Assembly: GCA_963784675.1 (NCBI GenBank)
Contig: CAWASE010000013.1
Location: 226,660-290,659, forward strand
Length of the DNA stretch: 64,000 nt
DNA from: an uncultured Actinomycetes bacterium
GTDB lineage: Bacteria > Actinomycetota > Actinomycetes > Mycobacteriales > SCTD01
Direction: 5' to 3'
Position 1 is the stretch's first letter. The number at the start of each line of letters is the position of its first letter. The position numbers were made by a program, and so were the translations under genes. Shown one piece after another: positions 32,206 through 61,256 of the stretch. The notes below the pieces were generated by a model. The model made no database searches and was not told the DNA's origin. It saw only the letters and a list, made by a program, of their open reading frames with translations.

Positions 32206-32898
32206 TCAGGCGTTCGCGACCGTGGCCTGGCTCGGCGTCTGGACCGAGGTCGGTGACTGCTGCGGCGAGGGGGTCGTCGCCGCGTCGGTGTCGGGGCCGG
32301 GCCCGTCCCCGTGCTTGCTGGCGGGGCCGTGCCCGCCTCCGTGGTGGCCGCGACCGCCCCGCGGCGGTCCGGTCCGATCGACCCGGTCCGCCACCTCTGC
32401 GGCGAGACCGGCCTTGCGGGCGTCGGCCTGCGCCTGCGTGAGACGACCCGCGGCGACCGCCTCGGTCAGCCGCTGCTGGCCGGCGGCGACGAGCGAGTCG
32501 ATCAGGGCCTGCTTGGCGACGCCGTGAGCAGCAGCCACCTGGGCCAAGGTCTTGCCGGACTGCAGCTCGGTGCGCAGCTGGGCCGGCGTCAGGCCGAGCA
32601 GGTCGGCGATCTCCTGGGCGCCGGCTTCCCGTCCGCCGGGTCCGGCGGCGCGCTGGTCTCCGGCGGCGCGCTGGGGCGGCGTCGCCTGCAAGGTGCTCGC
32701 GACCTTGTCGGCCTGCGCCTGGGTGAGGGTGCCGTCGGTGACGAGACCCTTGAGGGCGTCCGTCAGCGCCGACAGCCGGCCGCCCACGCCCGATCCGGGG
32801 TCGGCCTGAGCGGCAGCGGGCAGCAGCACGGCCCCGGCCAGCCCGAGGGAGCCGGCCAGGGCGGTGCCGGCGACCGTGGTCACGAGGCGCTTGCGCAT
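32206..32898 (-). CDS. secreted LTxxQ-motif protein with Gly/His-rich tail (paralog of 39453-40115)
   Basis: The ATG at 32898 is preceded by GGAGGA. Signal peptide ...LLPAAAQA-DPG. Motifs TLTQAQADKV, GLTPAQLRTEL and RLTQAQADAR. The tail reads PPRGGRGHHGGGHGPASKHGDGPGPD. Confidence 0.7.
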   Translation of the reverse strand: MRKRLVTTVAGTALAGSLGLAGAVLLPAAAQADPGSGVGGRLSALTDALKGLVTDGTLTQAQADKVASTLQATPPQRAAGDQRAAGPGGREAGAQEIADLLGLTPAQLRTELQSGKTLAQVAAAHGVAKQALIDSLVAAGQQRLTEAVAAGRLTQAQADARKAGLAAEVADRVDRTGPPRGGRGHHGGGHGPASKHGDGPGPDTDAATTPSPQQSPTSVQTPSQATVANA

Positions 32899-32961
32899 GG
32901 GTCCTCCGTCGTCAGGGCCCGCGTCGTCGCGGGCGCTCTGGCGTCCACTGTGGCCGCGCAC

Positions 32962-32990
32962 CCTGTGACGCGGCTGTGACGGGCCTGTGA
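32962..32990 (-). promoter_or_regulatory. three 11-nt-phased PhoP-box-like heptamers (TCACAGG, TCACAGC, TCACAGG on the minus strand)
   Basis: The + strand reads cctgtgacgcggctgtgacgggcctgtga. The heptamer T residues are at 32990, 32979 and 32968. The element lies 63 nt upstream of the ATG at 32898, in the same orientation as the gene. Confidence 0.55.
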
Positions 32991-33006
32991 GTGCGGTGCC
33001 GGTCGC

Positions 33007-33956
33007 TCACAGGGCCCGCGGCGCCCACGCGACCGCTGCCGCCGCGGCGCCGACCGTGGCCAGCAGCGCGAGCCCGGCCGCTGGCGCGCCGACCGGCTGT
33101 CGTTCGGTGGTGGTCCCGAGACTGCTGCCGATGTCGGCATAGACCGCGGTGAGCTGCTCGCCGTCGGCCGCCTCGTACGCGCTGCCGTCGGTGCCGGCGG
33201 CGAGCTGGGCGAGGGCGGGGGCGTCGACCGGGACGCCGCAGGGACCGCCGGTCGACGGTGACGGTGCCCTGCTGGGTGCCGTACGCGATGGTCGAGACGG
33301 GGACGTGCGCCGCCGTGGCCAGGGCCGCCGCGGCGTCGATGCTGCGGCCGGCGGTGTTCGCGCCGTCGGACAGCAGGACGATGTGCGCGGGGACCGGGTC
33401 GCCGCCACCAGGGACGGCGTCGACGGCCGACAGGGAGGCTGCGACGGCTTCGCCGACGGCGGTGCCGTTGCCCGAGCCGCAGCGGTGCCGATGGCCCGCT
33501 CGACAGCGAGGTGCTCCTGCGTGGCGGGGACGACGACGGCGGCGGTGCCGGAGAAGGCGACCAGGCCGACGTTGAAGCGCGCAGGCAGCCCGTCGACGAA
33601 GGACTGGGCGGCCGCCTTGGCGGCGGTGAAGCGGTCCGGAGCGACATCGGTCGCCGCCATCGACAGCGAGACGTCCAGGGCCACCACGACGGTGGCCCGC
33701 TCGCGTGGCACCTGGACCTCGGCGGACGGGTCGGCGAACGCCGCCGTCGACCCGGCCAGCGCCGTCAGCACCAGAGCCGCGCCGGACGTGCCGGCGCCAG
33801 CCGAGCCGGGGCGCGACCGACGCAGCAGGTCCAGGCCGGTGAGCCGGACGGCATAGCGGCTGCGCCGGCGTTGCGCGAGCACGTACGCCGCGCCGAGGGC
33901 GACGACGACGAGAGCAGCCAGAGCCGCCCGGGATGGTCGAAGACGAGCCCGGTCAT
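33007..33956 (-). pseudogene. VWA domain-containing protein (BatA-like), reading frame broken about 3 times
   Basis: MTGLVFDHPGRLWLL..., MIDAS VVVALDVSLSMAATDVAPDRFTAAK, FNVGLVAFSG, then GNGTAVGEAV...HIVLLSDGANTAG...VSTIAYGT in another frame, then VPVDAPALAQLAAGTDGSAYEA back in the first. It is collinear with the intact paralog at 35975-36949. Frame changes lie near 33905, 33485 and 33253. Confidence 0.6.
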
Positions 33957-34891
33957 GCCGCACCCGCCCGGACGCGCGGCGCCGCGGGTGCGGCGCCGGA
34001 CGGTGAGGAAACGGGCGAGCTGCGGGAGCCAGTCGGTCGTCGGTCAGCACGACCAGGTGCCCGGCGCCGGCGCGCGTACCGCCTGGCGCTGCGCGCTCGC
34101 CCGCTCTGCGGCCGCGGCGGCATAGCGCGCACGCGTCCGGGCGTCCGTGCGCAGGGTGACCCCGGCCCCGCCGGTCCGGGATCGGCGAGCTCAGGACGCC
34201 GACCGCGGGCAGGCTCGAGCTCGCGGCGGTCGACGACCTGGGCGACGAGCGACGTCGTGCCGGGCGGCGAGCAGCCGCAGCGGGCGCGCCAGTCTCGACC
34301 GGGTCGAGCAGGTCGCTGACCACGACCACCATGCCGCGGCGGCGCGGGCGGGCGACCACCGCCCGCGGGCCGGCGGCGAGGTCGAGGGGGCCCTCGCGGT
34401 GCGACGCGGGGCTGGCGCAGCAGCGCCGGACGAGCGCGCGTGGACCCGGCGCGTCCGGCGCGGGCCGGCAGCGTGGCGCACGGCGTGCCCGTCGACCACC
34501 AGGGCCCCGACGCGGTCGCCGGGCCGGGTGCCCAGGTGCAGGAACGCCGCGGCGAGCGCCAGCGCGACCTCGCGCTTCTCCGCGGTGGCCGTCCCGAAGG
34601 ACATGGACGCGGAAAGGTCTACCAGCACGGTGGTCTCGAGCTCCCGCTCGGCCACGGTCATCCGTACGTGCGGGGTCGTGCTGCGGGCGGTCACGGCCCA
34701 GTCGATGCGGCGGACGTCGTCACCGGGTGCATAGGCGCGGGCCTCGGCGGCCTCGGTACCGGGCCCCGGCAGAGAGCCCAGGTGGTCGCCCTGCACGAGC
34801 CCGTCCAACCGTCGGGAGACGTCGTACGGGAGCCGGCGCAGCCGGGCGGGCGCGGCGAGAGGGGGCGGCGGCAAGGCCGTCGGCGCGCCTC

Positions 34892-34895
<4 letters not shown>
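33953..34895 (-). pseudogene. DUF58 domain-containing protein, reading frame broken many times
   Basis: The ATG at 34895 sits in an ATGA overlap with the inferred moxR stop. YAPGDDVRRIDWAVTARS...TVLVDLSASM is in one frame. RRRGMVVVVSDLLDP, WARPLRLLAARHDV, LVAQVVDRRELE, LPAVGVL, ELADP, GVTLRTDARTRARYAAAAAERA, HLVVLTDD and DWLPQLARFL are scattered over all three frames, indicating at least 8 indels. Confidence 0.55.
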
Positions 34896-35936
<1,041 letters not shown>

Positions 35937-35974
35937 GGTGCGGACTCCTTGCAAGAGGGACGGGACGGGACAGG

Positions 35975-36949
35975 TCAGACCAGGCGCGAGAACCACGCCA
36001 GGGACAGGGCAGAGCCGGCAGCGAGCAGGGCGAGCGCGCCGCCGGCGAACAGGTCGGCCAGGTCGGTGCGCCGGGTCAGCTGCACCAGCTGGGAGGTGAT
36101 GTCGTCGTAGGTGGCGCGCAGCTGCTCGGCCGAGGCAGCGGTGTAGGCGGTCCCGCCGGTCTCGGCGGCGACCTGCGCGAGGGCCTCGCTGTTGACGGGC
36201 ACCTGGTAGGTGATGCCGTTCGCGACCACGATCCCGCCGGGGGTGCCGTAGGCGATCGTCGAGACGGGGACGCCGGCGGTCTGCACCGCCGTGGTGGCGT
36301 CCGGGAGCGGCGTGCCGATCGTGCTGTCTCCGTCGGAGAGCAGCACGATGCGACCGGCTCTGGAGAGGTCGGCCTGCGGCAGCGCCGAGGCGACCGCGTC
36401 CAGCGAGGTGAGCAGGGCGTCGCCGGCCGCGGTGCCGCCGGACATCGTCAACCCGTCGACGGCCCGGGCCACCTGCTCGTGCTCGGCGGTGGGCGCGGCG
36501 ACGAGGGTGACGGCGGCGTCGTAGGACACCAGCCCCACGTCGACGTCGGCCGGCAGGTCGCGGACGAAGGCCTTGGCCGCGGCGGTCGCGGCAGTGAACC
36601 GGTCCGGGGCGACGTCGGTCGCCATCATCGAGGAGCTGGTGTCCAGGGCGACCAGGACGACGGCCCGCTCGGTGGCGTGGTCGGCGAGCACCTGCGGTCG
36701 GGCGAAGGCGGTCGTCAGGGCGAGGACCGCGAGGACCAGCCCGCCGGCCGCGACCGGCCGTCGCCAGCCGGGCCGGTGCGGCGCGACGGACGGCAGCAGG
36801 GCGGCCTCGGCGTACTGCTCGCTCCCGCGCCGGTGCCTCCACCGGACGAGCAGGCCGACGACCCCGGCTACCGCCAGGACCGCGAGCAGCCACAGCCGGC
36901 CGGGGGCGTCGAAGCGGAAGTCGGCGGCAGCGAAGGTGTGAGCGTCCAT
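35975..36949 (-). CDS. VWA domain-containing protein (BatA-like), intact
   Basis: MDAHTFAAADFRFDAPGRLWLL, TM segments, MIDAS VVLVALDTSSSMMATDVAPDRF, VGLVSYD, GGTAAGDAL, IVLLSDGDST, and a C-terminal TM. Confidence 0.8.
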   Translation of the reverse strand: MDAHTFAAADFRFDAPGRLWLLAVLAVAGVVGLLVRWRHRRGSEQYAEAALLPSVAPHRPGWRRPVAAGGLVLAVLALTTAFARPQVLADHATERAVVLVALDTSSSMMATDVAPDRFTAATAAAKAFVRDLPADVDVGLVSYDAAVTLVAAPTAEHEQVARAVDGLTMSGGTAAGDALLTSLDAVASALPQADLSRAGRIVLLSDGDSTIGTPLPDATTAVQTAGVPVSTIAYGTPGGIVVANGITYQVPVNSEALAQVAAETGGTAYTAASAEQLRATYDDITSQLVQLTRRTDLADLFAGGALALLAAGSALSLAWFSRLV

Positions 36950-37037
36950 GGCCAGAACGGTGCGGCGCGGTCCTGGCACCGACCTGCGCACCGGCTGGAC
37001 GTCCGCTGTGCACTCCCGCGGCTACCGTGCGACGGGC

Positions 37038-37077
37038 TCACAGCAAGCTCACAGCAAAGGCCCAGACTGGTGACAGG
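37038..37077 (+). promoter_or_regulatory. PhoP-box direct repeats in the divergent promoter (TCACAGC-N4-TCACAGC, plus in-phase GCCCAG and TGACAGG)
   Basis: Read directly: gcTCACAGCaagcTCACAGCaaaggcccagactggTGACAGGcc. The heptamers start at 37038, 37049, (37060) and 37071. The element lies 66 nt upstream of the RR ATG and 89 nt from the vwa1 ATG. Confidence 0.65.
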
Positions 37078-37142
37078 CCACCGCCAGACGATGGTGCGGC
37101 AGGCCGGGGACCCGGCGGCGAACCGCGTACCGAGGAGCTCGC

Positions 37143-37877
37143 ATGACCACCGCCACCCGCCCGGACAGCGAAGCCCGGCTGCTCGTCGTGGACGACGAGC
37201 CCAACATCCTGGAGCTGTTGTCGGTGAGCCTGCGCTTCGCTGGCTTCGACGTCGCGACGGCGACGAACGGCGTGGACGCCCTGAACCGGGCGCGCGAGTT
37301 CCGTCCCGAGCTGATGGTGCTCGACGTGATGATGCCCGGCATGGACGGGTTCGAGGTGGCCCGGCAGCTGCGCAGCACCGGCGACCAGGTGCCGGTGCTG
37401 TTCCTGACCGCCAAAGACGCCACCGAGGACCGTGTGCAGGGCCTGACCCTGGGCGGCGACGACTACGTCACCAAGCCGTTCAGCCTGGAGGAGGTCGTGG
37501 CCCGCATCCGCGCGGTGCTGCGTCGCACCGGCGGAGCGGCCGCACCGGACCCCGTCCAGAGCCGCTCGCGACTGTCCTACGCCGACATCGTCCTGGACGA
37601 CGACACGCACGAGGTGTGGAAGGGGGAGCAGGAGGTCGACCTGTCCCCGACGGAGTTCAACCTGCTGCGGTACCTGCTGCAGAACCCGGGTCGGGTGCTG
37701 TCCAAGCGGCAGATCCTCGAGCACGTCTGGAACTACGACTTCGGTGGTGACGGCAACGTCGTGGAGTCCTACATCTCCTACCTGCGCCGCAAGGTCGACA
37801 CCGCCGAGCCCCGGCTGCTGCACACGGTGCGCGGGGTCGGCTACGTCCTGCGGCTGCCGAAGTCGCCGGGCGCGTGA
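37143..37877 (+). CDS. phoP: OmpR/PhoB-family response regulator, closest in my reading to M. tuberculosis PhoP (Rv0757)
   Basis: ARLLVVDDEPNILELLSVSLRFAGFDVATATNG...MVLDVMMPGMDGFEV...LTLGGDDYVTKPFSLEEVVARIRAVLRR...LSPTEFNLLRYL...NVVESYISYLRRKVD...LHTVRGVGYVLR. This is near-collinear with Mtb PhoP as I remember it. GAGGAG RBS. Confidence 0.8.
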   Translation: MTTATRPDSEARLLVVDDEPNILELLSVSLRFAGFDVATATNGVDALNRAREFRPELMVLDVMMPGMDGFEVARQLRSTGDQVPVLFLTAKDATEDRVQGLTLGGDDYVTKPFSLEEVVARIRAVLRRTGGAAAPDPVQSRSRLSYADIVLDDDTHEVWKGEQEVDLSPTEFNLLRYLLQNPGRVLSKRQILEHVWNYDFGGDGNVVESYISYLRRKVDTAEPRLLHTVRGVGYVLRLPKSPGA

Positions 37878-39352
37878 GCCCCGGCCCGGACGTCGCTCCG
37901 AGGACGGGGCGGCTCTCGCGGGTGCCGCTGCGCACCCAGCTCGTGGCCCTGCTGCTCGGCACCGTCGCCCTGGTCGTCGCGCTGACCAGCGTCGCGGGCA
38001 GCGTCGCCCTGCACGACTACCTGGTGAACCGCATCGACGTGCAGCTCGCCGCGGCGCTCGAGGATCCCGGCGGCCCCGGCGGTGCCGGGTTCGGGCGACC
38101 GCGTCGCGGTGGGGGGCCCGACGAGGGCGGCCGGGACGTCGCCGTCACGACCCTCGACTACGACGCCGAGGGGCGGCTGTCCCCCCGCGACGTCGCTGAG
38201 CTCGCTGCCTTCGGCGGGCCGGAGGTCGACGACCCGACGGCGCTGCCCGACGGGCCCTCCGACGTGCCCGCCGTCTCCGGTGCCGGCAGCTGGCGGGTGC
38301 TGGCCGGCGACGGCTCGCGCACCGGCGGGGTCCGCGTGGTCGCCGTGTCGCTGGACGGGGTGCGCGACACCGGCTCGCAGCTGCTGCTCATCAACGCTGC
38401 CGTCGGCCTGATCGCCTTGGCCGGGGCGGGCGTGCTGGCGTGGGCCGCGGTGCGCCGCAGCCTCGCGCCGCTGGTGTCGGTGGAGGAGACCGCCGAGGCG
38501 ATCGCGGCAGGAGACCTGACCCGTCGGGTCCGCGAGGGAGACCCGCGCACCGAGGTCGGCTCGCTCGCTGCCTCTTTCAACAGCATGGTCGACCGCTTCG
38601 AGAGCGCGTATTCGGCCCAGCAGCAGTCGGAGTCGGCGGCGCGCGCGTCGGAGGAGCGGATGCGTCGTTTCGTCGGCGACGCCAGCCACGAGCTGCGCAC
38701 GCCGTTGACGTCCATCCGCGGGTTCGCCGAGCTCTTCCGGCAGGGAGCGGCGCGCGAGCCCGAACAGCTCGCCCGGGTGATGCGTCGCATCGAGGACGAG
38801 GCAGCCCGGATGGGGCTGCTGGTCGAGGACCTGCTGCTGCTCGCGCGGCTGGACCAGCAACGGCCGCTGCGACAGGAGACGGTCGACCTGCTGTCGGTCG
38901 TGGCCGACGTCGTGCACGACGCGGCGACGGTGTACGAGGACCACACCGTGCGCCTGGTCGCCCCCACCGGGCCGGGGCTGCCGGAGGTCGTCGGCGACGA
39001 CCCGCGGCTGCGGCAGGTGTTCAGCAACCTGGTCACCAACGCCGTCACGCACACCGCTCGCGGGACCACGGTCGACGTCGCGCTGCACGCCGACCACGTC
39101 ACCGTCACCGTCACCGTCACCGACGACGGAGCCGGCATGGCCCCGGACGTCGCGGAGCGCGTGTTCGAGCGGTTCTACCGCGCCGACGCCTCCCGCTCGC
39201 GCACGGCGCCGCAGGCCAGCGGCAGCGGCCTGGGCCTGTCCATCGTGGCTGCCCTGGTGGCGGCGCACGGGGGCAGCGTCGAGGTCACCAGCACGGTCGA
39301 CGTCGGTACGTGCTTCCTGGTGCGGCTGCCGGCCCGGCCCGTCCAGGACTGA
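37874..39352 (+). CDS. phoR: sensor histidine kinase (PhoR-like: TM-loop-TM, HAMP, HisKA, HATPase_c)
   Basis: GTGA overlap with the RR gene. Two TM segments flank an extracytoplasmic loop of about 150 aa. H-box RRFVGDASHELRTPLTSIRGFAELFRQGAA. DDGAGM and GSGLGLSIV. Confidence 0.8.
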   Translation: MSPGPDVAPRTGRLSRVPLRTQLVALLLGTVALVVALTSVAGSVALHDYLVNRIDVQLAAALEDPGGPGGAGFGRPRRGGGPDEGGRDVAVTTLDYDAEGRLSPRDVAELAAFGGPEVDDPTALPDGPSDVPAVSGAGSWRVLAGDGSRTGGVRVVAVSLDGVRDTGSQLLLINAAVGLIALAGAGVLAWAAVRRSLAPLVSVEETAEAIAAGDLTRRVREGDPRTEVGSLAASFNSMVDRFESAYSAQQQSESAARASEERMRRFVGDASHELRTPLTSIRGFAELFRQGAAREPEQLARVMRRIEDEAARMGLLVEDLLLLARLDQQRPLRQETVDLLSVVADVVHDAATVYEDHTVRLVAPTGPGLPEVVGDDPRLRQVFSNLVTNAVTHTARGTTVDVALHADHVTVTVTVTDDGAGMAPDVAERVFERFYRADASRSRTAPQASGSGLGLSIVAALVAAHGGSVEVTSTVDVGTCFLVRLPARPVQD

Positions 39353-39367
39353 CAGCCGGGTCACAGC
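39350..39367 (+). promoter_or_regulatory. PhoP-box-like direct repeat TGACAGC-N4-TCACAGC
   Basis: It starts at the phoR stop codon and lies 86 nt upstream of the ATG at 39453. The spacing is 11 nt, and the orientation is the same as at the phoP promoter. Confidence 0.45.
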
Positions 39368-39452
39368 AGCAGCGGGGACTCCTGCCAGCCGGGAGGACGA
39401 GGTTGATGACATCGCAGGCCGACCAGGCCCGCCCCGCTCCCAGGAGAACCTC

Positions 39453-40115
39453 ATGCGCACCAAGCTCGCCACCGCCGCTCTGATCGGCTCCCTCGGCCTG
39501 ACCGGCGTCGCCGGCGCGGCCCTGCTCTCCCCGGCCGTGTCCTACGCGGCGACCGGTGCCGCGACCGCCGTCTCGGACCGCGCCGCCTCTCTCGCCAGCA
39601 CGCTGAAGGGTCTGGTGAGCGACGGCACCATCACCCAGGCGCAAGCCGACAAGGTCGCCTCCACGCTCGCCGCGGCGGCTCCGGCCCGCGGTGACGGCGG
39701 CCCCGGGCACGGCCGCGACGGAGGCGGCGGCGGCCGGGTCGACCAGGCCGCTGCCGCCACCGCGCTGGGCCTGTCCGCCGACGCGCTGCGGACGCAGCTG
39801 GACGCGGGCAAGACCCTCGCGCAGGTCGCCGACGCCCAGGGCGTGGACCAGGCGACGCTGGTGAAGGCGCTGGTCACCTCGGCGAAGGGGCGGCTGGCCG
39901 ACCAGGTCGCCTCCGGCCGGATCACCCAGGCGCAGGCCGACACCCGGGCCAGCACCCTGCAGGCCGAGATCACCGAGCACCTGGACGACGTCTGCCTGCC
40001 CGGGGGCGGCGGCCCGGGCCACGGCCCGCGCGGCAACGACGGTGACGCCGACGACGCCCCGGCCACCACCGCGTCGCCCGCTCCCGCGACGGCGGGCGCC
40101 GGCAGCGCCGCCTGA
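39453..40115 (+). CDS. secreted LTxxQ-like protein with Gly/His/Asp-rich tracts (paralog of 32206-32898)
   Basis: AGGAGA RBS. Signal peptide ...LLSPAVSYA-ATG. LKGLVSDGTITQAQADKVASTL is nearly identical to the paralog. GKTLAQVADAQGVDQATLVKALV...RITQAQADTR. Tracts GDGGPGHGRDGGGGG and PGGGGPGHGPRGNDGD. Confidence 0.7.
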   Translation: MRTKLATAALIGSLGLTGVAGAALLSPAVSYAATGAATAVSDRAASLASTLKGLVSDGTITQAQADKVASTLAAAAPARGDGGPGHGRDGGGGGRVDQAAAATALGLSADALRTQLDAGKTLAQVADAQGVDQATLVKALVTSAKGRLADQVASGRITQAQADTRASTLQAEITEHLDDVCLPGGGGPGHGPRGNDGDADDAPATTASPAPATAGAGSAA

Positions 40116-44380: not shown

Positions 44381-46636
44381 GTGAGCGCCGCTGTGACCCG
44401 GCCAGAGGTGGCGCGGCAGACTGTCGCGGTGCCCTCCGTCGCTGCGTCACCACCTCCTGCCGCGCAGGGCGGGCTGGCGCACGAGCTCGACCGCGAGCAG
44501 CAGGTGCTCGACCGGGCGCTGGCGCGGCTGCAGGTGCTGCGGGCCGAAGCCGTGCAGCGCGAGAGCGAGAGCGTCCGGCCGACCGGCGGATCGCCCCAGG
44601 CCGTCTACGAGCGCGACGTCGCGGCGCAGGCAGCGGCCAACCGCCGGGCCGATCTGGACACCGCCGGCGAGGGGCTGCTGTTCGGGCGGCTGGACCGCGA
44701 CGACGGCACGGTCCACCACCTCGGGCGCACGGGGCTGCGCACCGACGCCCAGGAACCGATTGTGCTCGACTGGCGGGCGCCGGCGGCCGCCGCCTTCTAC
44801 CGGGCGACGGCGGCGGACCCGCAGGGCGTGCTGCGGCGCCGCACCATCACCTGCCGTCGCACCTCGGTGGTGGGCATCGACGACGAGCTCCTGGATCCCG
44901 AGGCCGCCGACCGGCTCGAGGGCTCGGTCGTCGTCGGCGACGGCGCTTTCCTCGCGGCCGTCTCTCGCGAGCGCACCGGACAGATGCGCGACATCGTCGC
45001 GACCATCCAGCGTGAGCAGGACGAGGCGGTCCGGGCGCCCGACGACGGGGCGCTGGTCGTGACGGGCGGCCCCGGTACGGGCAAGACCGCGGTGGCTCTG
45101 CACCGCGTCGCGTACCTGATGTACGCCCGACGGGAGTTCTACTCACGCCGCGGCGTCCTCGTCGTCGGGCCGTCGCCGGTGTTCGTCGACTACATCGGTG
45201 GGGTGCTACCCGGGCTCGGTGAGACGAGCGTCCGGCTGGCGAGCCTGGCCGACCTGCCCGATCTGCCGCGCGGCGAGCGTGTGACCGGCTGGGACGCCCC
45301 GGAGGCGGTCGCGGTCAAGGGCTCGCCGCGGATGGCCGAGCTGTTGCGGCTGCTCGTGCGGTCGCTGGGTGGCGCCAAGCGGGTCAGCGACCTGCCGATC
45401 GACCGTTGGGGGGCCACCGTCACGGTGCGCGGCCACGAGATCGCCCGCAAGCGCGCGCAGGTCTCGCGGGGAGCCCGCAGCCACAACAGCGGGCGTGCGG
45501 CGTTCACGGCCGGCCTGGTCGAGCTGGCCTGGCGGGCCTGGCAGCGGCGACCGGAGGCTCCGCGCGAGGAACCCGACGACCGTGAGGACTTCGGGGCCTG
45601 GGTGCGTGGCGACTCGGCCTTCCGGCGGGCCCTGGACGAGGCCTGGCCGGTGCTGCTGCCCTGGCCGCTGCTGACCCGGCTGCGCACCGGCGACGTCGTG
45701 CTGCGCGAGCTGGCCGGCGGGCTGCTGAGCGAGCGCGAGATCGCAGCGCTGGAGGACAGCTGGCGCAGCCGCCCGCAGGGTCCGGCGCCGTTGACGGCCG
45801 CTGACGCGGCCGTGTTCGACGAGCTCGCCGAGCTGCTCGGCGCGCCCCCCGTCGAGCTGGAGCCCGAGGACGACGGTTGGGACGAGCTGGCCGAGCTCGA
45901 CGCGCTGGCCCGCGAGTCGGAGGTGACCACGCACGCCGACCGCACCTCGCGGGCTCGACGCAGCGTCGCCGAGGAGCGCGACTACCGCACCTTCGCCCAC
46001 GTCGTCGTCGACGAGGCGCAGGACGTCACGCCGATGCAGTGGCGCATGCTCGGTCGTCGCGCGAGGGGGGCCACCTGGACCATCGTCGGCGACTGGGTCC
46101 AGTCGGCGTGGCCGGACGTCCAGGAGGTGCGCGACGCGCTCACCGGGGTGCTGGGACGCAGCCGGCTGCGCGAGGCCGAGCTGACGACGAACTACCGCAC
46201 GAGCACCGAGGTCGCGGTGCTGGCCGCCCGGCTGCTGCACCGGATCGATCCGTCGCTGCAGGCCCCCGCCGCCGTGCGCAGCACCGGTGTCGAGCCGCTG
46301 CTGCTCGTCGACGCGGATCCGCTCTCAGCCCTGCCGGCGGCGGTGTCGAGCCTGCTGGCGCAGGTCGGCGGCACGGTGGGCGTGGTCGCGCCGTACGCGC
46401 TCGCCGAGCAGGTCCGGCACCTGCTCCCGGCAGACCCGCGGCTGTCGGTGGTCGACCCGTGGCAGGTCAAGGGGCTGGAGTACGACGGCTGCCTGGTGCT
46501 GGACCCGCACGGGCTCGTCCAGGAGAGCCAGCATCCGGTCGCCGGGCTGCGCAGCCTCTATGTGGCCCTCACGCGCGCCACCCAGCGCCTGGTCGTGCTC
46601 GGCGAGCGCCCCCTGGAGAGTCTGCTGCAGCCCTGA
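44381..46636 (+). CDS. HelD/HelR-like UvrD-family (SF1) helicase, RNA polymerase-associated type
   Basis: N-terminal coiled-coil region, FGRLDRDDG...LGRTGL, and VLDWRAPAAAAFYRAT, which I recognise as typical of HelD. Walker A VVTGGPGTGKTAVALHR. VVDEAQDVTPMQWRML. C-terminal LYVALTRATQRLVVL. Confidence 0.8.
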   Translation: MSAAVTRPEVARQTVAVPSVAASPPPAAQGGLAHELDREQQVLDRALARLQVLRAEAVQRESESVRPTGGSPQAVYERDVAAQAAANRRADLDTAGEGLLFGRLDRDDGTVHHLGRTGLRTDAQEPIVLDWRAPAAAAFYRATAADPQGVLRRRTITCRRTSVVGIDDELLDPEAADRLEGSVVVGDGAFLAAVSRERTGQMRDIVATIQREQDEAVRAPDDGALVVTGGPGTGKTAVALHRVAYLMYARREFYSRRGVLVVGPSPVFVDYIGGVLPGLGETSVRLASLADLPDLPRGERVTGWDAPEAVAVKGSPRMAELLRLLVRSLGGAKRVSDLPIDRWGATVTVRGHEIARKRAQVSRGARSHNSGRAAFTAGLVELAWRAWQRRPEAPREEPDDREDFGAWVRGDSAFRRALDEAWPVLLPWPLLTRLRTGDVVLRELAGGLLSEREIAALEDSWRSRPQGPAPLTAADAAVFDELAELLGAPPVELEPEDDGWDELAELDALARESEVTTHADRTSRARRSVAEERDYRTFAHVVVDEAQDVTPMQWRMLGRRARGATWTIVGDWVQSAWPDVQEVRDALTGVLGRSRLREAELTTNYRTSTEVAVLAARLLHRIDPSLQAPAAVRSTGVEPLLLVDADPLSALPAAVSSLLAQVGGTVGVVAPYALAEQVRHLLPADPRLSVVDPWQVKGLEYDGCLVLDPHGLVQESQHPVAGLRSLYVALTRATQRLVVLGERPLESLLQP

Positions 46637-58781: not shown

Positions 58782-59725
58782 GCAGCCGCCGCGGCCGGTT
58801 CGCCGCCGACAGCGGGCTGACCTCGCGGATGCTGCTCGTGCTCTTCCTGCTCGGGCTGCTGTACGTCGTCGCGATCGGTGCGCTCATCGGCCTCGGGATC
58901 AGCCCGGTGGTGGTGCTCGTGGTGGTCGGCGGGTTCTTCGTCTTCCAGTACGTCGCCAGCGACAAGATCGCGCTGTACGCGATGAACGGTCGGCTGGTCG
59001 AGCCTGCGGAGGCCGCTGAGCTGCACGGGGTCATCGACCGGCTCTGCGCGCTGTCGGACACCCCGAAGCCGCGCGTGGCCGTCGCCGACAGCGACGTGCC
59101 CAACGCCTTCGCCACCGGGCGCAGCCCGTCCAAGGCCGTCGTCTGCGTGACCACCGGCCTGCTGCGGCGGCTCGAGCCGGACGAGCTGGAGGGCGTGCTC
59201 GCGCACGAGCTGTCGCACGTCGCGCACCGCGACGTCGCCGTGATGACCATCGCCTCCTTCCTCGGCGTCCTGTCCGGGCTCATCACCCGCTTCGTGCTGC
59301 AGTCGATGGCCTTCGGCGGCTTCGGCCAGGGCTACGGCGGTCGCGGCTACGGTCGCGACCGCAGCGACAACCGCGACAGCAACAGCGGCATCCCGATCGT
59401 CATCGCCGTGATCGTGGTGTCGGCCCTGGTCTACGCCGTCAGCTTCCTGCTCATCCGGGCGCTGTCGCGCTACCGCGAGCTGTCGGCCGACCGCACGGCC
59501 GCGCAGCTCACCGGCCGGCCGTCCTCGCTCGCCTCGGCCCTGACGAAGGTCACCGGCGAGATGGCCCGCGTCCCCACCCGCGACCTGCGCGAGGCCGAGC
59601 CGTTCAACGCCTTCTTCTTCACCCCGGCGCTGGCGCAGGGCTTCAGCCTGTCCTCGCTGTTCTCCACCCACCCGTCGCTGGACACCCGGCTGGCGCAGCT
59701 GGCGAAGATGTCGGCGACGTCATGA
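58778..59725 (+). CDS. htpX: zinc metalloprotease HtpX (M48)
   Basis: N-terminal TM pair, PNAFATG, HELSHVAHRD (HExxH), YRELSADRTAAQLTG, and THPSLDTRL. Confidence 0.9.
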   Translation: MSSRRGRFAADSGLTSRMLLVLFLLGLLYVVAIGALIGLGISPVVVLVVVGGFFVFQYVASDKIALYAMNGRLVEPAEAAELHGVIDRLCALSDTPKPRVAVADSDVPNAFATGRSPSKAVVCVTTGLLRRLEPDELEGVLAHELSHVAHRDVAVMTIASFLGVLSGLITRFVLQSMAFGGFGQGYGGRGYGRDRSDNRDSNSGIPIVIAVIVVSALVYAVSFLLIRALSRYRELSADRTAAQLTGRPSSLASALTKVTGEMARVPTRDLREAEPFNAFFFTPALAQGFSLSSLFSTHPSLDTRLAQLAKMSATS

Positions 59726-60291
59726 CGTTCCTCGACGCGCTGCTGGGGCGCAAGAAGCCGGTGCCGCCGGACCTCGACGCCCTGTTCGCGCTGCCGTCGG
59801 CGGCGGTCGGCCTGCAGGCCTCCCTGGCGCTCGTGCCGACCGGCCTCGGGTCGGTCTGCATCAAGCCGGTGGAGGGTGCCGCCTTCACCCGCACCCAGAC
59901 CGAGGTGCAGGCGCTGCTGCGCGTCGACGACACCTCCCGCGTCGACGTCACGCGCGACGACTACGGCTATGCCTGGACGACGGTCGCCGCCGACCGGAGC
60001 CGGCTGCCCGACGTCGTCAGTGCGCTGCACGCGGCCAACACCACCTACGCCCGCGACGAGTTCGGGACCGGCCTGCTCTGCTCGCTGGTGGGCTTCCAGG
60101 GCCCGGACGGGCGAGCGGTCGCGCTGGTCTACCTCTACAAGCGGGGGACGTTCTACCCGTTCGCCCCGCGCGGCGCACAGCAGCGCGACACGGCCCTGGA
60201 GCTGCAGGTGCGCGCCGCGATCGGTGCTGACCTCAAGATCGAGCCGGACCTGTCCCGCTGGTTCCCGGTCTGGGGTGCTCCGGGGCTGTGA
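59722..60291 (+). CDS. PspA-associated protein (PspAB-like), conserved hypothetical
   Basis: MTFLDALLGRKKPVPPDLDALFALPSAA...YLYKRGTFYPFAP... ATGA overlap with htpX. It is the last gene of the operon. Confidence 0.6.
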   Translation: MTFLDALLGRKKPVPPDLDALFALPSAAVGLQASLALVPTGLGSVCIKPVEGAAFTRTQTEVQALLRVDDTSRVDVTRDDYGYAWTTVAADRSRLPDVVSALHAANTTYARDEFGTGLLCSLVGFQGPDGRAVALVYLYKRGTFYPFAPRGAQQRDTALELQVRAAIGADLKIEPDLSRWFPVWGAPGL

Positions 60292-60380
60292 CGTCCCGGG
60301 CTGTGACGTCCCGGGCTGTGACGTCCGGGCGTGACGTTCGGGCTGTGACGTCCGCGCGGTGACGTCCGCGCGGTGACCCG
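60285..60380. repeat. 7-unit tandem repeat array (13-15-nt period, core GTGACG; four units carry GCTGTGA, which is TCACAGC on the minus strand)
   Basis: gctgtgacgtcccgg gctgtgacgtcccgg gctgtgacgtccgg gcgtgacgttcgg gctgtgacgtccgcgc ggtgacgtccgcgc ggtgacccg. It fills the whole gap between two convergent stop codons (60291 and 60381). Confidence 0.85.
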
Positions 60381-61256
60381 TCAGAGCGTCCCGACGTCGT
60401 GGCCGAGCAGCTGCAGCGCCAGCGCGCCGGCGCCGATCAGCGGCGCGTCCCGGCCGAGCCCCACCGGCGCGATGCGGCAGCCGTCCGTCGAGCTCAACCG
60501 GCTGGTCGCGCGTAGGCCCCGGCTGGCGGCCGAGAAGAACGGTCCGCCGTAGCCGAGGGCCACCGACCCGCCGATGGCGACCAGCGACAGGTCCAGCAGG
60601 TTCACCACCGACGCCAGCCCCTGACCCAGCAGCCGGCCGGCCCGCAGCACCTCCGCCATCGGCGCCCGGGCGGCCGGCGCGCCGGTGCGGGCGGCGATCG
60701 CCGTGCCGCTGATCTCGGCCTCCAGGCACCCCTGCCCGCCGCAGGAGCACGGCGCACCGTCCGGCACCACGACCACGTGACCGATGAAGCCGGCGTTGCC
60801 TGCCCGGCCGTGCAGCAGCCGTCCGTCGAGCACGAGCCCGCCGCCGACGCCGGTGGACACCACCATCGCCAGGTAGTCGCGGGTGCCTGCGGCCGCGCCC
60901 TTCCACCCCTCGCCGACGGCCAGCGCCTTCGCGTCGCCGTCGACGACCACCGGCATCCGGAGCGCCCGCTCCAGCCGGGCGTGCAGCGGGAACTGCCGCC
61001 AGGCGGGCATGTTCAGCGGCGAGACCGCCTCGCCTCCCCGGGTCATCGGACCCGTCGTCCCGACTCCGGCGGCCGCGACCCCCTCGGGCGAGACCTGCTG
61101 CACCGCTGACAGGACGGCGGCCAGCAGCACCTCGGGATCCTCGCCCCGCGGCGTCAGGGCGGTCGCCGAGCGGTGCAGGACACCGTCGCCGTCGAGGATG
61201 CCGGCGGCGATCTTCGTGGCGCCGATGTCGATCGCCAGGACGGTCTGCGCGGGCAC
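60381..61256 (-). CDS. ROK family sugar kinase
   Basis: LAIDIGATKIAAG, VVDGDAKALAVGE, GAGNAGFIGH, and zinc motif CSCGGQGCLE. Confidence 0.85.
   Translation of the reverse strand: MPAQTVLAIDIGATKIAAGILDGDGVLHRSATALTPRGEDPEVLLAAVLSAVQQVSPEGVAAAGVGTTGPMTRGGEAVSPLNMPAWRQFPLHARLERALRMPVVVDGDAKALAVGEGWKGAAAGTRDYLAMVVSTGVGGGLVLDGRLLHGRAGNAGFIGHVVVVPDGAPCSCGGQGCLEAEISGTAIAARTGAPAARAPMAEVLRAGRLLGQGLASVVNLLDLSLVAIGGSVALGYGGPFFSAASRGLRATSRLSSTDGCRIAPVGLGRDAPLIGAGALALQLLGHDVGTL

Follow-up and report, generated by a model that had tools for sequence, protein, structure and literature searches.

The window analyzed here, a stretch of 64,000 nucleotides of actinobacterial DNA with a G+C content of 73.4%, carries a two-component system together with a divergently transcribed MoxR-VWA operon and two genes for related secreted proteins. 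The regulator gene (37143-37877, plus strand) codes for a response regulator of the OmpR family (domains Response_reg and Trans_reg_C), and the gene of the PhoR-like sensor histidine kinase (37874-39352, plus strand; HAMP-HisKA-HATPase_c) has a start that overlaps the regulator stop. Among solved relatives, the regulator matches Mycobacterium tuberculosis PhoP best (341 bits, compared to 198 for PrrA and 174 for MtrA). Its identity to PhoP amounts to 69% across 232 residues, and we consider it the ortholog of this protein. In the PhoP-DNA crystal structure, the DNA is read by residues N212, V213, E215, S216, Y217, and Y220 of the recognition helix and by R237 of the wing (PMC4832192); all of these are invariant in the regulator of the window, its seven close relatives, and M. 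tuberculosis PhoP. The context of the phospho-acceptor, LDVMMPGMDG, is conserved as well. The kinase is 64-73% identical to those of the close relatives and 33-51% identical to the kinases of the ortholog loci described below, in most of which its gene is syntenic with the regulator gene.

Neither the two proteins of the two-component system nor the secreted proteins reached an NCBIfam equivalog. We rejected an assignment of the regulator to MtrA (213 bits, with a cut-off of 300) and to PhoB, for which two equivalog models scored 216 and 158 bits with cut-offs of 296 and 471, respectively. CutR of Streptomyces was likewise rejected as the closest characterized ortholog, its motif, TAWATAAA, being unrelated to the repeat found here (PMC12802291).

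The operon divergent from phoP (33007-36949, minus strand) comprises, by Pfam, vwa1 (35975-36949), a MoxR gene (AAA_3 ATPase), a DUF58 gene, and vwa2. In the region 33007-37013 of this strand, MoxR and DUF58 share one uninterrupted ORF of 940 codons, and the C-terminus of DUF58 runs on in another frame, where it makes up the N-terminal part of the 33007-34359 ORF. This points to a frameshift, fusion, or assembly error.

The two genes for secreted, all-alpha proteins are located at 32206-32898 (minus strand) and 39453-40115 (plus strand). Their products are paralogs (47% identity, E=1e-33) that both contain repeated TQAQAD motifs, and the only Pfam match of the pair is to DUF2680, which is weak and sub-threshold for the 32206-32898 product. 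An AlphaFold model of the secreted protein is all-helical (pLDDT 71.5), and a PDB fold search with this model produced no match with E below 0.8. Homologs are hypothetical proteins confined to Frankiales(-like) MAGs and Motilibacter. The family is often linked to phoPR: its genes adjoin phoP in two of the ortholog loci (L081, with two copies, and L087, where the genes are divergent and the arrays described below stand back-to-back), and several short contigs carry homologs of both the secreted protein and the regulator.

An exact direct repeat upstream of phoP

A preliminary description of this DNA had noted an exact TCACAGC-N4-TCACAGC direct repeat, plus two degenerate copies in phase with it, between phoP and vwa1, and the sequence itself, Tandem Repeats Finder, and heptamer scoring all confirm this arrangement. 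The segment 37036-37079 reads GCTCACAGCAA GCTCACAGCAA AGGCCCAGACT GGTGACAGGCC, and Tandem Repeats Finder detects an exact tandem of the 11-bp unit GCTCACAGCAA (2.0 copies, 37036-37057). The exact direct repeat occupies 37038-37055 on the plus strand, with the spacer aagc. We refer to its heptamers as H1 (37038-37044) and H2 (37049-37055), which both match TCACAGC at 7/7 positions and together form a predicted distal consensus PhoP box. H3 (GCCCAGA, 37060-37066; 4/7) and H4 (TGACAGG, 37071-37077; 5/7) follow, all four heptamers being phased at 11 nt, and constitute a predicted, degenerate proximal box (37060-37077). The distances given earlier are also correct: position 37077 lies 66 nt from the regulator ATG (37143), and 37038 lies 89 nt from the vwa1 ATG (36949). 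The PhoP consensus cited in that description is indeed the motif obtained by in vitro selection (SELEX) and the DNA used for crystallization, and ChIP-seq has yielded TCACAG-N5-TCACAG (PMC4832192, PMC4620462).

When up to one mismatch is allowed, TCACAGC-N4-TCACAGC occurs four times in the window, whereas 100 shuffles gave an expectation of 0.04 and never yielded four. The enrichment is gone at up to three mismatches (12 versus 8.4 expected). Single heptamers matching TCACAGC at 5/7 or better start at 1.5% of the positions in the window and those matching at 4/7 or better at 8.4%, and the degenerate copies H3 and H4 are therefore weak evidence when taken by themselves. The window contains ten exact TCACAGC heptamers in total. 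Four of these reside in a tandem repeat (60279-60377; 6-7 copies of a 14-15-nt unit, GACGTCACAGCCCGG on the minus strand), which sits between the convergent ends of two genes (59722-60291, plus strand, and 60381-61256, minus strand). The exact heptamers at 60291-60348 belong to this repeat and have the wrong period, and we discarded them as PhoP-phased sites. No phased partner was found for the exact heptamers at 44396 and 17481 (minus strand).

Predicted architecture of the phoP promoter

Nine nucleotides downstream of H4 lies a conserved hexamer of the form xANNNT, GACGAT (37087-37092), which we predict to be the -10 element and which would place the proximal box over the -35 region. Its A37088 and T37092 do not vary among the aligned close relatives. 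The hexamer is devoid of the first T. Transcription of phoP is predicted to start near 37099, resulting in an mRNA leader of about 44 nt, and a Shine-Dalgarno sequence, GAGGAG (37133-37138), is located 4 nt upstream of the regulator ATG. A generic scan of 32800-39600 for sigma-70 promoters and terminators found nothing, the scan being too stringent for DNA of 73% G+C.

A common grammar at four putative promoters of the window

Three strong sites in the window share a heptamer located 70-72 nt from the start codon, which is followed by exactly N9 and then by xANNNT. We condensed this arrangement into a composite model consisting of four heptamers with an 11-nt period, scored against TCACAGC, followed by N9 and xANNNT. 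Given that the model was drawn up after viewing the sites of the window, the relatives and the controls with altered gap or period serve as its independent test.

The phoP promoter obtains the highest score (S=23). The promoter of the 32206-32898 gene ranks second (S=22; 32947-33001, minus strand), with the heptamers (CGGCACC), TCACAGG, TCACAGC, and TCACAGG, of which the last three are separated by cccg and cgcg, and the hexamer CACAGT (32952-32947) after N9. At the promoter of its paralog, 39453-40115, the array (S=20; 39350-39404, plus strand) consists of TGACAGC, TCACAGC, GCGGGGA, and TGCCAGC, separated by cggg, agca, and ctcc, with GAGGTT (39399-39404) after N9, and this predicted PhoP-type promoter overlaps the kinase stop codon. 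The fourth array faces vwa1 (S=18; 36957-37011, minus strand) and comprises GCACAGC (37011-37005), GTCCAGC (37000-36994), GCGCAGG (36989-36983), and TGCCAGG (36978-36972), followed after N9 by a -10-like hexamer of its own, CACCGT (36962-36957).

These four promoter regions are the top four matches to the composite model on both strands of the window, compared to a mean of 0.087 and a maximum of one match with S of at least 18 per window in 300 Markov simulations. All four arrays are found within 4.2 kb of the phoPR genes. With their shared grammar, the promoters of phoP, the two secreted-protein genes, and vwa1 might form a small local PhoP regulon.

Two further features of this region deserve mention. 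One is a plus-strand TCACAGG (33007-33013) that overlaps the stop codon of vwa2. Sixteen nucleotides separate it from the first minus-strand heptamer (32984-32990), with which it makes up a 7-bp inverted repeat; this could be a weak hairpin at the end of the operon or a coincidence. In addition, a sub-threshold array (S=16; 37206-37260, minus strand) is located antisense within the phoP ORF and has a counterpart in one ortholog locus (L084, 6055-6109, minus strand); it is most likely a by-product of the conserved coding sequence.

The location of the direct repeat between two divergent genes had led to the proposal that it could control both arms. For the phoP arm, the sequence data support this proposal, whereas the vwa1 arm probably employs its own, weaker minus-strand array (37011-36972) rather than the repeat at 37038 alone. 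The heptamers of this array are weak (6, 4, 4, and 4 of 7 positions), and CACCGT is followed by 7 nt and the ATG at 36949, which is the geometry of a leaderless transcript. None of 28 distant VWA1 homologs from metagenomes (46% identity or less) had an array with S of at least 16 nearby, and control of vwa1 thus finds no counterpart in conservation; likewise, none of the 87 ortholog loci has a VWA operon beside phoP. Given these two results, the case for PhoP acting on vwa1 comes from the statistics within the window and from geometry.

Conservation of the phoP array among relatives

To the composite model we submitted 87 ortholog loci (2.03 Mb), 80 of them from reference genomes and seven from more closely related, Frankiales-like assemblies (80-88% identity). 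The model yielded 61 matches with S of at least 18. In 36 of the 87 loci, a single one of these precedes the regulator gene, on its sense strand and at a distance of 40-230 nt. Changing the gap from N9 to N8 or N10 reduced the 61 matches to five and four, respectively, and periods of 9, 10, 12, and 13 left 1, 0, 4, and 0 matches.

In all seven close relatives, the array precedes the start codon by about 85 nt. In an alignment of the eight genomes (the window and these relatives), the invariant positions are CTCACAG of H1, C.CAG of H2, CAG of H3, CAG of H4, and A2 and T6 of the hexamer, whereas the spacers between the heptamers vary. Because their CAG cores are invariant, we regard H3 and H4 as real, conserved half-sites despite their degeneracy. 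The succession of two strong, one weak, and one moderate heptamer recurs in many ortholog loci. In many lineages (e.g. L024, L027, L028, L050, and L055), the hexamer is followed by 6-7 nt and then by the phoP start codon, making these transcripts apparently leaderless.

Many of the 25 remaining matches reproduce other sites of the window. Eleven are located just downstream of the kinase gene, +2094 to +2593 from the regulator start, which is the place of the 39350 site, and five stand back-to-back with the phoP array on the opposite strand (L002, L040, L046, L071, and L087), which is the place of the vwa1 array. Owing to these matches, a layout of divergent gene, phoPR, and downstream gene, all driven by boxes, can be said to recur with changing cargo.

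With regard to this cargo, four-heptamer promoters are present downstream of the kinase (about +2.1 to +3.1 kb) in L003, L013, L040, L044, L045, L046, L049, L050, L055, L057, L062, and L071, and the lineages with such a predicted PhoP-type promoter include Streptomyces, Nocardia, and Mycobacterium. In L003, L013, L040, L045, L055, L057, L062, and L071, translation of the downstream ORF identified a GT2 or GT39 glycosyltransferase, whose gene the array would drive as a leaderless transcript. Further arrays precede an HtrA-like serine protease (L001, ~3032, minus strand) and HlyD-like periplasmic adaptor proteins (L025, ~2405, and L056, ~1675, both plus strand), and some of the remaining arrays precede small Gly/Pro-rich membrane proteins. 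The HtrA-like and HlyD-like genes give a hint that the regulon might be concerned with the envelope or with secretion stress.

Two regulator homologs of close relatives, L082 6001-6744 (84% identity) and L086 6001-6711 (80% identity), come without an intact adjacent kinase. Given that both keep the full array and an identical recognition helix, they may be orphan paralogs competing for the same boxes.

Discussion

We consider it likely that the repeat upstream of phoP is the high-affinity distal PhoP box of an autoregulated phoPR promoter acting in positive feedback. In this predicted circuit, the phosphorylated regulator would bind as two tandem, head-to-tail dimers, one on H1-H2 and one on H3-H4, with the perfect distal box taking the first dimer and cooperatively loading the degenerate proximal box. 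If GACGAT occupies -12 to -7, H3-H4 would cover about -39 to -22 and replace the -35 element, bringing PhoP into contact with sigma region 4 and the beta flap. At PhoB-activated promoters of Escherichia coli, the pho box is found ~10 bp upstream of the -10 element, and the proximal box of the window presumably lies within 1 bp of this position. Transcription from near 37099 would produce the 44-nt leader with its strong ribosome-binding site, and the outcome would be positive feedback on phoPR. The same grammar might drive the two paralogous secreted proteins and, more weakly, the leaderless vwa1-moxR-DUF58-vwa2 operon.

Several of these steps have precedents. As the preliminary description had stated, autoregulation of M. 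tuberculosis phoP through direct repeats is documented in the literature, and the same is true for PhoP of M. abscessus. A study cited in PMC4620462 is reported there to show positive autoregulation of the M. tuberculosis phoPR operon. The repeats of the M. tuberculosis phoP promoter are degenerate (ACTGTTAGC and ACTGGCAAC), and a perfect consensus is therefore not necessary for autoregulation. In M. abscessus, PhoPR mediates an induction of phoP by acidic pH, and the phoP promoter contains two direct repeats, each of which is required for binding of phosphorylated PhoP (PMC10715180). Tandem binding has been described (PMC4832192), and cryo-EM structures of activation complexes with two, four, and six PhoP protomers (2PhoP, 4PhoP, and 6PhoP) revealed tandem dimers on phased boxes, the proximal dimer overlapping the -35 region and displacing sigma region 4 (PMC11825685).

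The same boxes could, however, act negatively, with PhoP over the -35 region occluding RNA polymerase in negative autoregulation, or repressing the divergent vwa1 promoter. Early work on M. tuberculosis phoP reportedly observed repression of its own promoter, which would favor such a role. It would also be in line with the ability of PhoP to activate or repress depending on promoter architecture (PMC11825685, PMC4620462). Nevertheless, we consider negative control unlikely: no -35-like hexamer that polymerase could use without PhoP was detected at the phoP promoter, and the proximal box adopts, to within 1 bp, the placement of the E. coli pho box. Moreover, many leaderless genes carry the same grammar at their 5' side without another promoter signal, and the reports on M. 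abscessus and on M. tuberculosis H37Rv, the latter as represented by its citation in PMC4620462, favor positive autoregulation.

Another question concerns the protein that reads the boxes, which could mainly be a different OmpR-family regulator, either MtrA or a PhoP-like paralog or orphan encoded in the same genome. In mycobacteria, the MtrA box consists of directly repeated 9-mers similar to GTCACAgcg, and its half-site GTCACAGCG contains TCACAGC (PMC4285127, PMC13189361). The kinase-less PhoP-like regulators of L082 and L086, which retain array and recognition helix, illustrate how an orphan might share these sites. On the other hand, the repeat is flanked by C..A and not by the G..G of MtrA-type sites, and the regulator of the locus falls below the MtrA cut-off (213 versus 300 bits). 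Because the four arrays of the window cluster within 4.2 kb of phoPR and arrays track phoP ortholog loci throughout the phylum, we favor the cognate regulator and judge mainly non-cognate recognition to be quite unlikely, although an MtrA encoded elsewhere may bind as well. A repeat without function, produced by chance or by a recent tandem duplication of 11 bp, is very improbable. The two units are indeed identical in all 11 bp, including the spacer, as might be expected after fresh slippage, but the enrichment and the phase and spacing controls speak against chance, and the heptamers are kept in relatives whose spacers differ.

Positive autoregulation by PhoP would place the locus close to, yet distinct from, several known systems. 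In E. coli, the PhoB pho box likewise spans 18 bp, with two directly repeated 7-bp units at an 11-bp period, and it replaces the -35 element, as predicted for the proximal box here. Its half-site is CTGTCAT instead of TCACAGC, its gap to the -10 element is 10 bp instead of 9 bp, and the signal differs too, nothing in the window pointing to phosphate control. Similar to multi-site promoters of E. coli OmpR, a high-affinity distal site would cooperate with low-affinity proximal sites. The half-site TCACAGC also led us to reject the repeat as a PHO box of the phosphate regulon, for which GTTCACC (Streptomyces PhoP) and CTGTCAT (E. coli PhoB) are the known units (PMC4832192). The four-heptamer layout matches the 4PhoP complex studied by cryo-EM; however, those scaffolds were phosphate-metabolism promoters with a consensus -10 element (PMC11825685), in contrast to the weak predicted -10 element and degenerate proximal box found here.

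A close counterpart is the box of M. tuberculosis PhoP (Rv0757), in which half-site (TCACAGC), strict 4-bp spacing, and direct orientation are the same. The regulators are orthologous with identical DNA-contact residues, and in both cases the site is located upstream of phoP. The additional downstream repeat resembles the mycobacterial DR3, and for 9-bp units on an 11-bp period, H2 and H4 of our array are separated by the same 13 bp that have been reported as the minimum gap between DR2 and DR3. The systems differ in that the M. tuberculosis promoter is degenerate whereas the distal box of the window matches the consensus perfectly, in their hosts, a mycobacterium as opposed to a Frankiales-like actinobacterium, and in the neighbors of phoPR, the MoxR-VWA operon and DUF2680-like secreted proteins being unlike the mycobacterial context. 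The predicted phoP mRNA of the window is leadered, while those of many relatives, including Mycolicibacterium (L012), seem to be leaderless. PhoPR of M. abscessus likewise relies on two direct repeats in the phoP promoter, yet its autoregulation has been demonstrated experimentally, with acidic pH as the stimulus (PMC10715180), whereas ours is predicted from sequence.

A response regulator activating its own operon via direct repeats is a textbook concept, and the gain provided by this locus is thus incremental rather than conceptual. Autoregulation through PhoP boxes was already known, to which the analysis would add a strict grammar (period 11, N9) and a small regulon around the locus. While PhoPR is central to the control of virulence in M. 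tuberculosis, its role outside the mycobacteria has barely been studied, and the window now provides a predicted autoregulatory site of perfect consensus in a distant actinobacterium. A spacing rule of this type, with its period of 11 and gap of 9 and its presence in 36 of 87 ortholog loci, could serve to infer PhoP regulons from sequence alone. More tentatively, and with somewhat less than even confidence, we propose that a single, fixed PhoP promoter grammar of four 11-bp-phased heptamers, a 9-bp gap, and a -10 element, often leaderless, operates across the Actinomycetota, with an ancestral role in the envelope or secretion; in M. tuberculosis, the regulon would have specialized only later in lipids and virulence. 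Candidates for ancestral targets are the DUF2680-like family of secreted, all-alpha proteins and the MoxR-VWA operon and, elsewhere, GT2/GT39 glycosyltransferases and the HtrA-like protease. If this proposal is correct, the grammar alone would permit the prediction of PhoP regulons in uncultured lineages.
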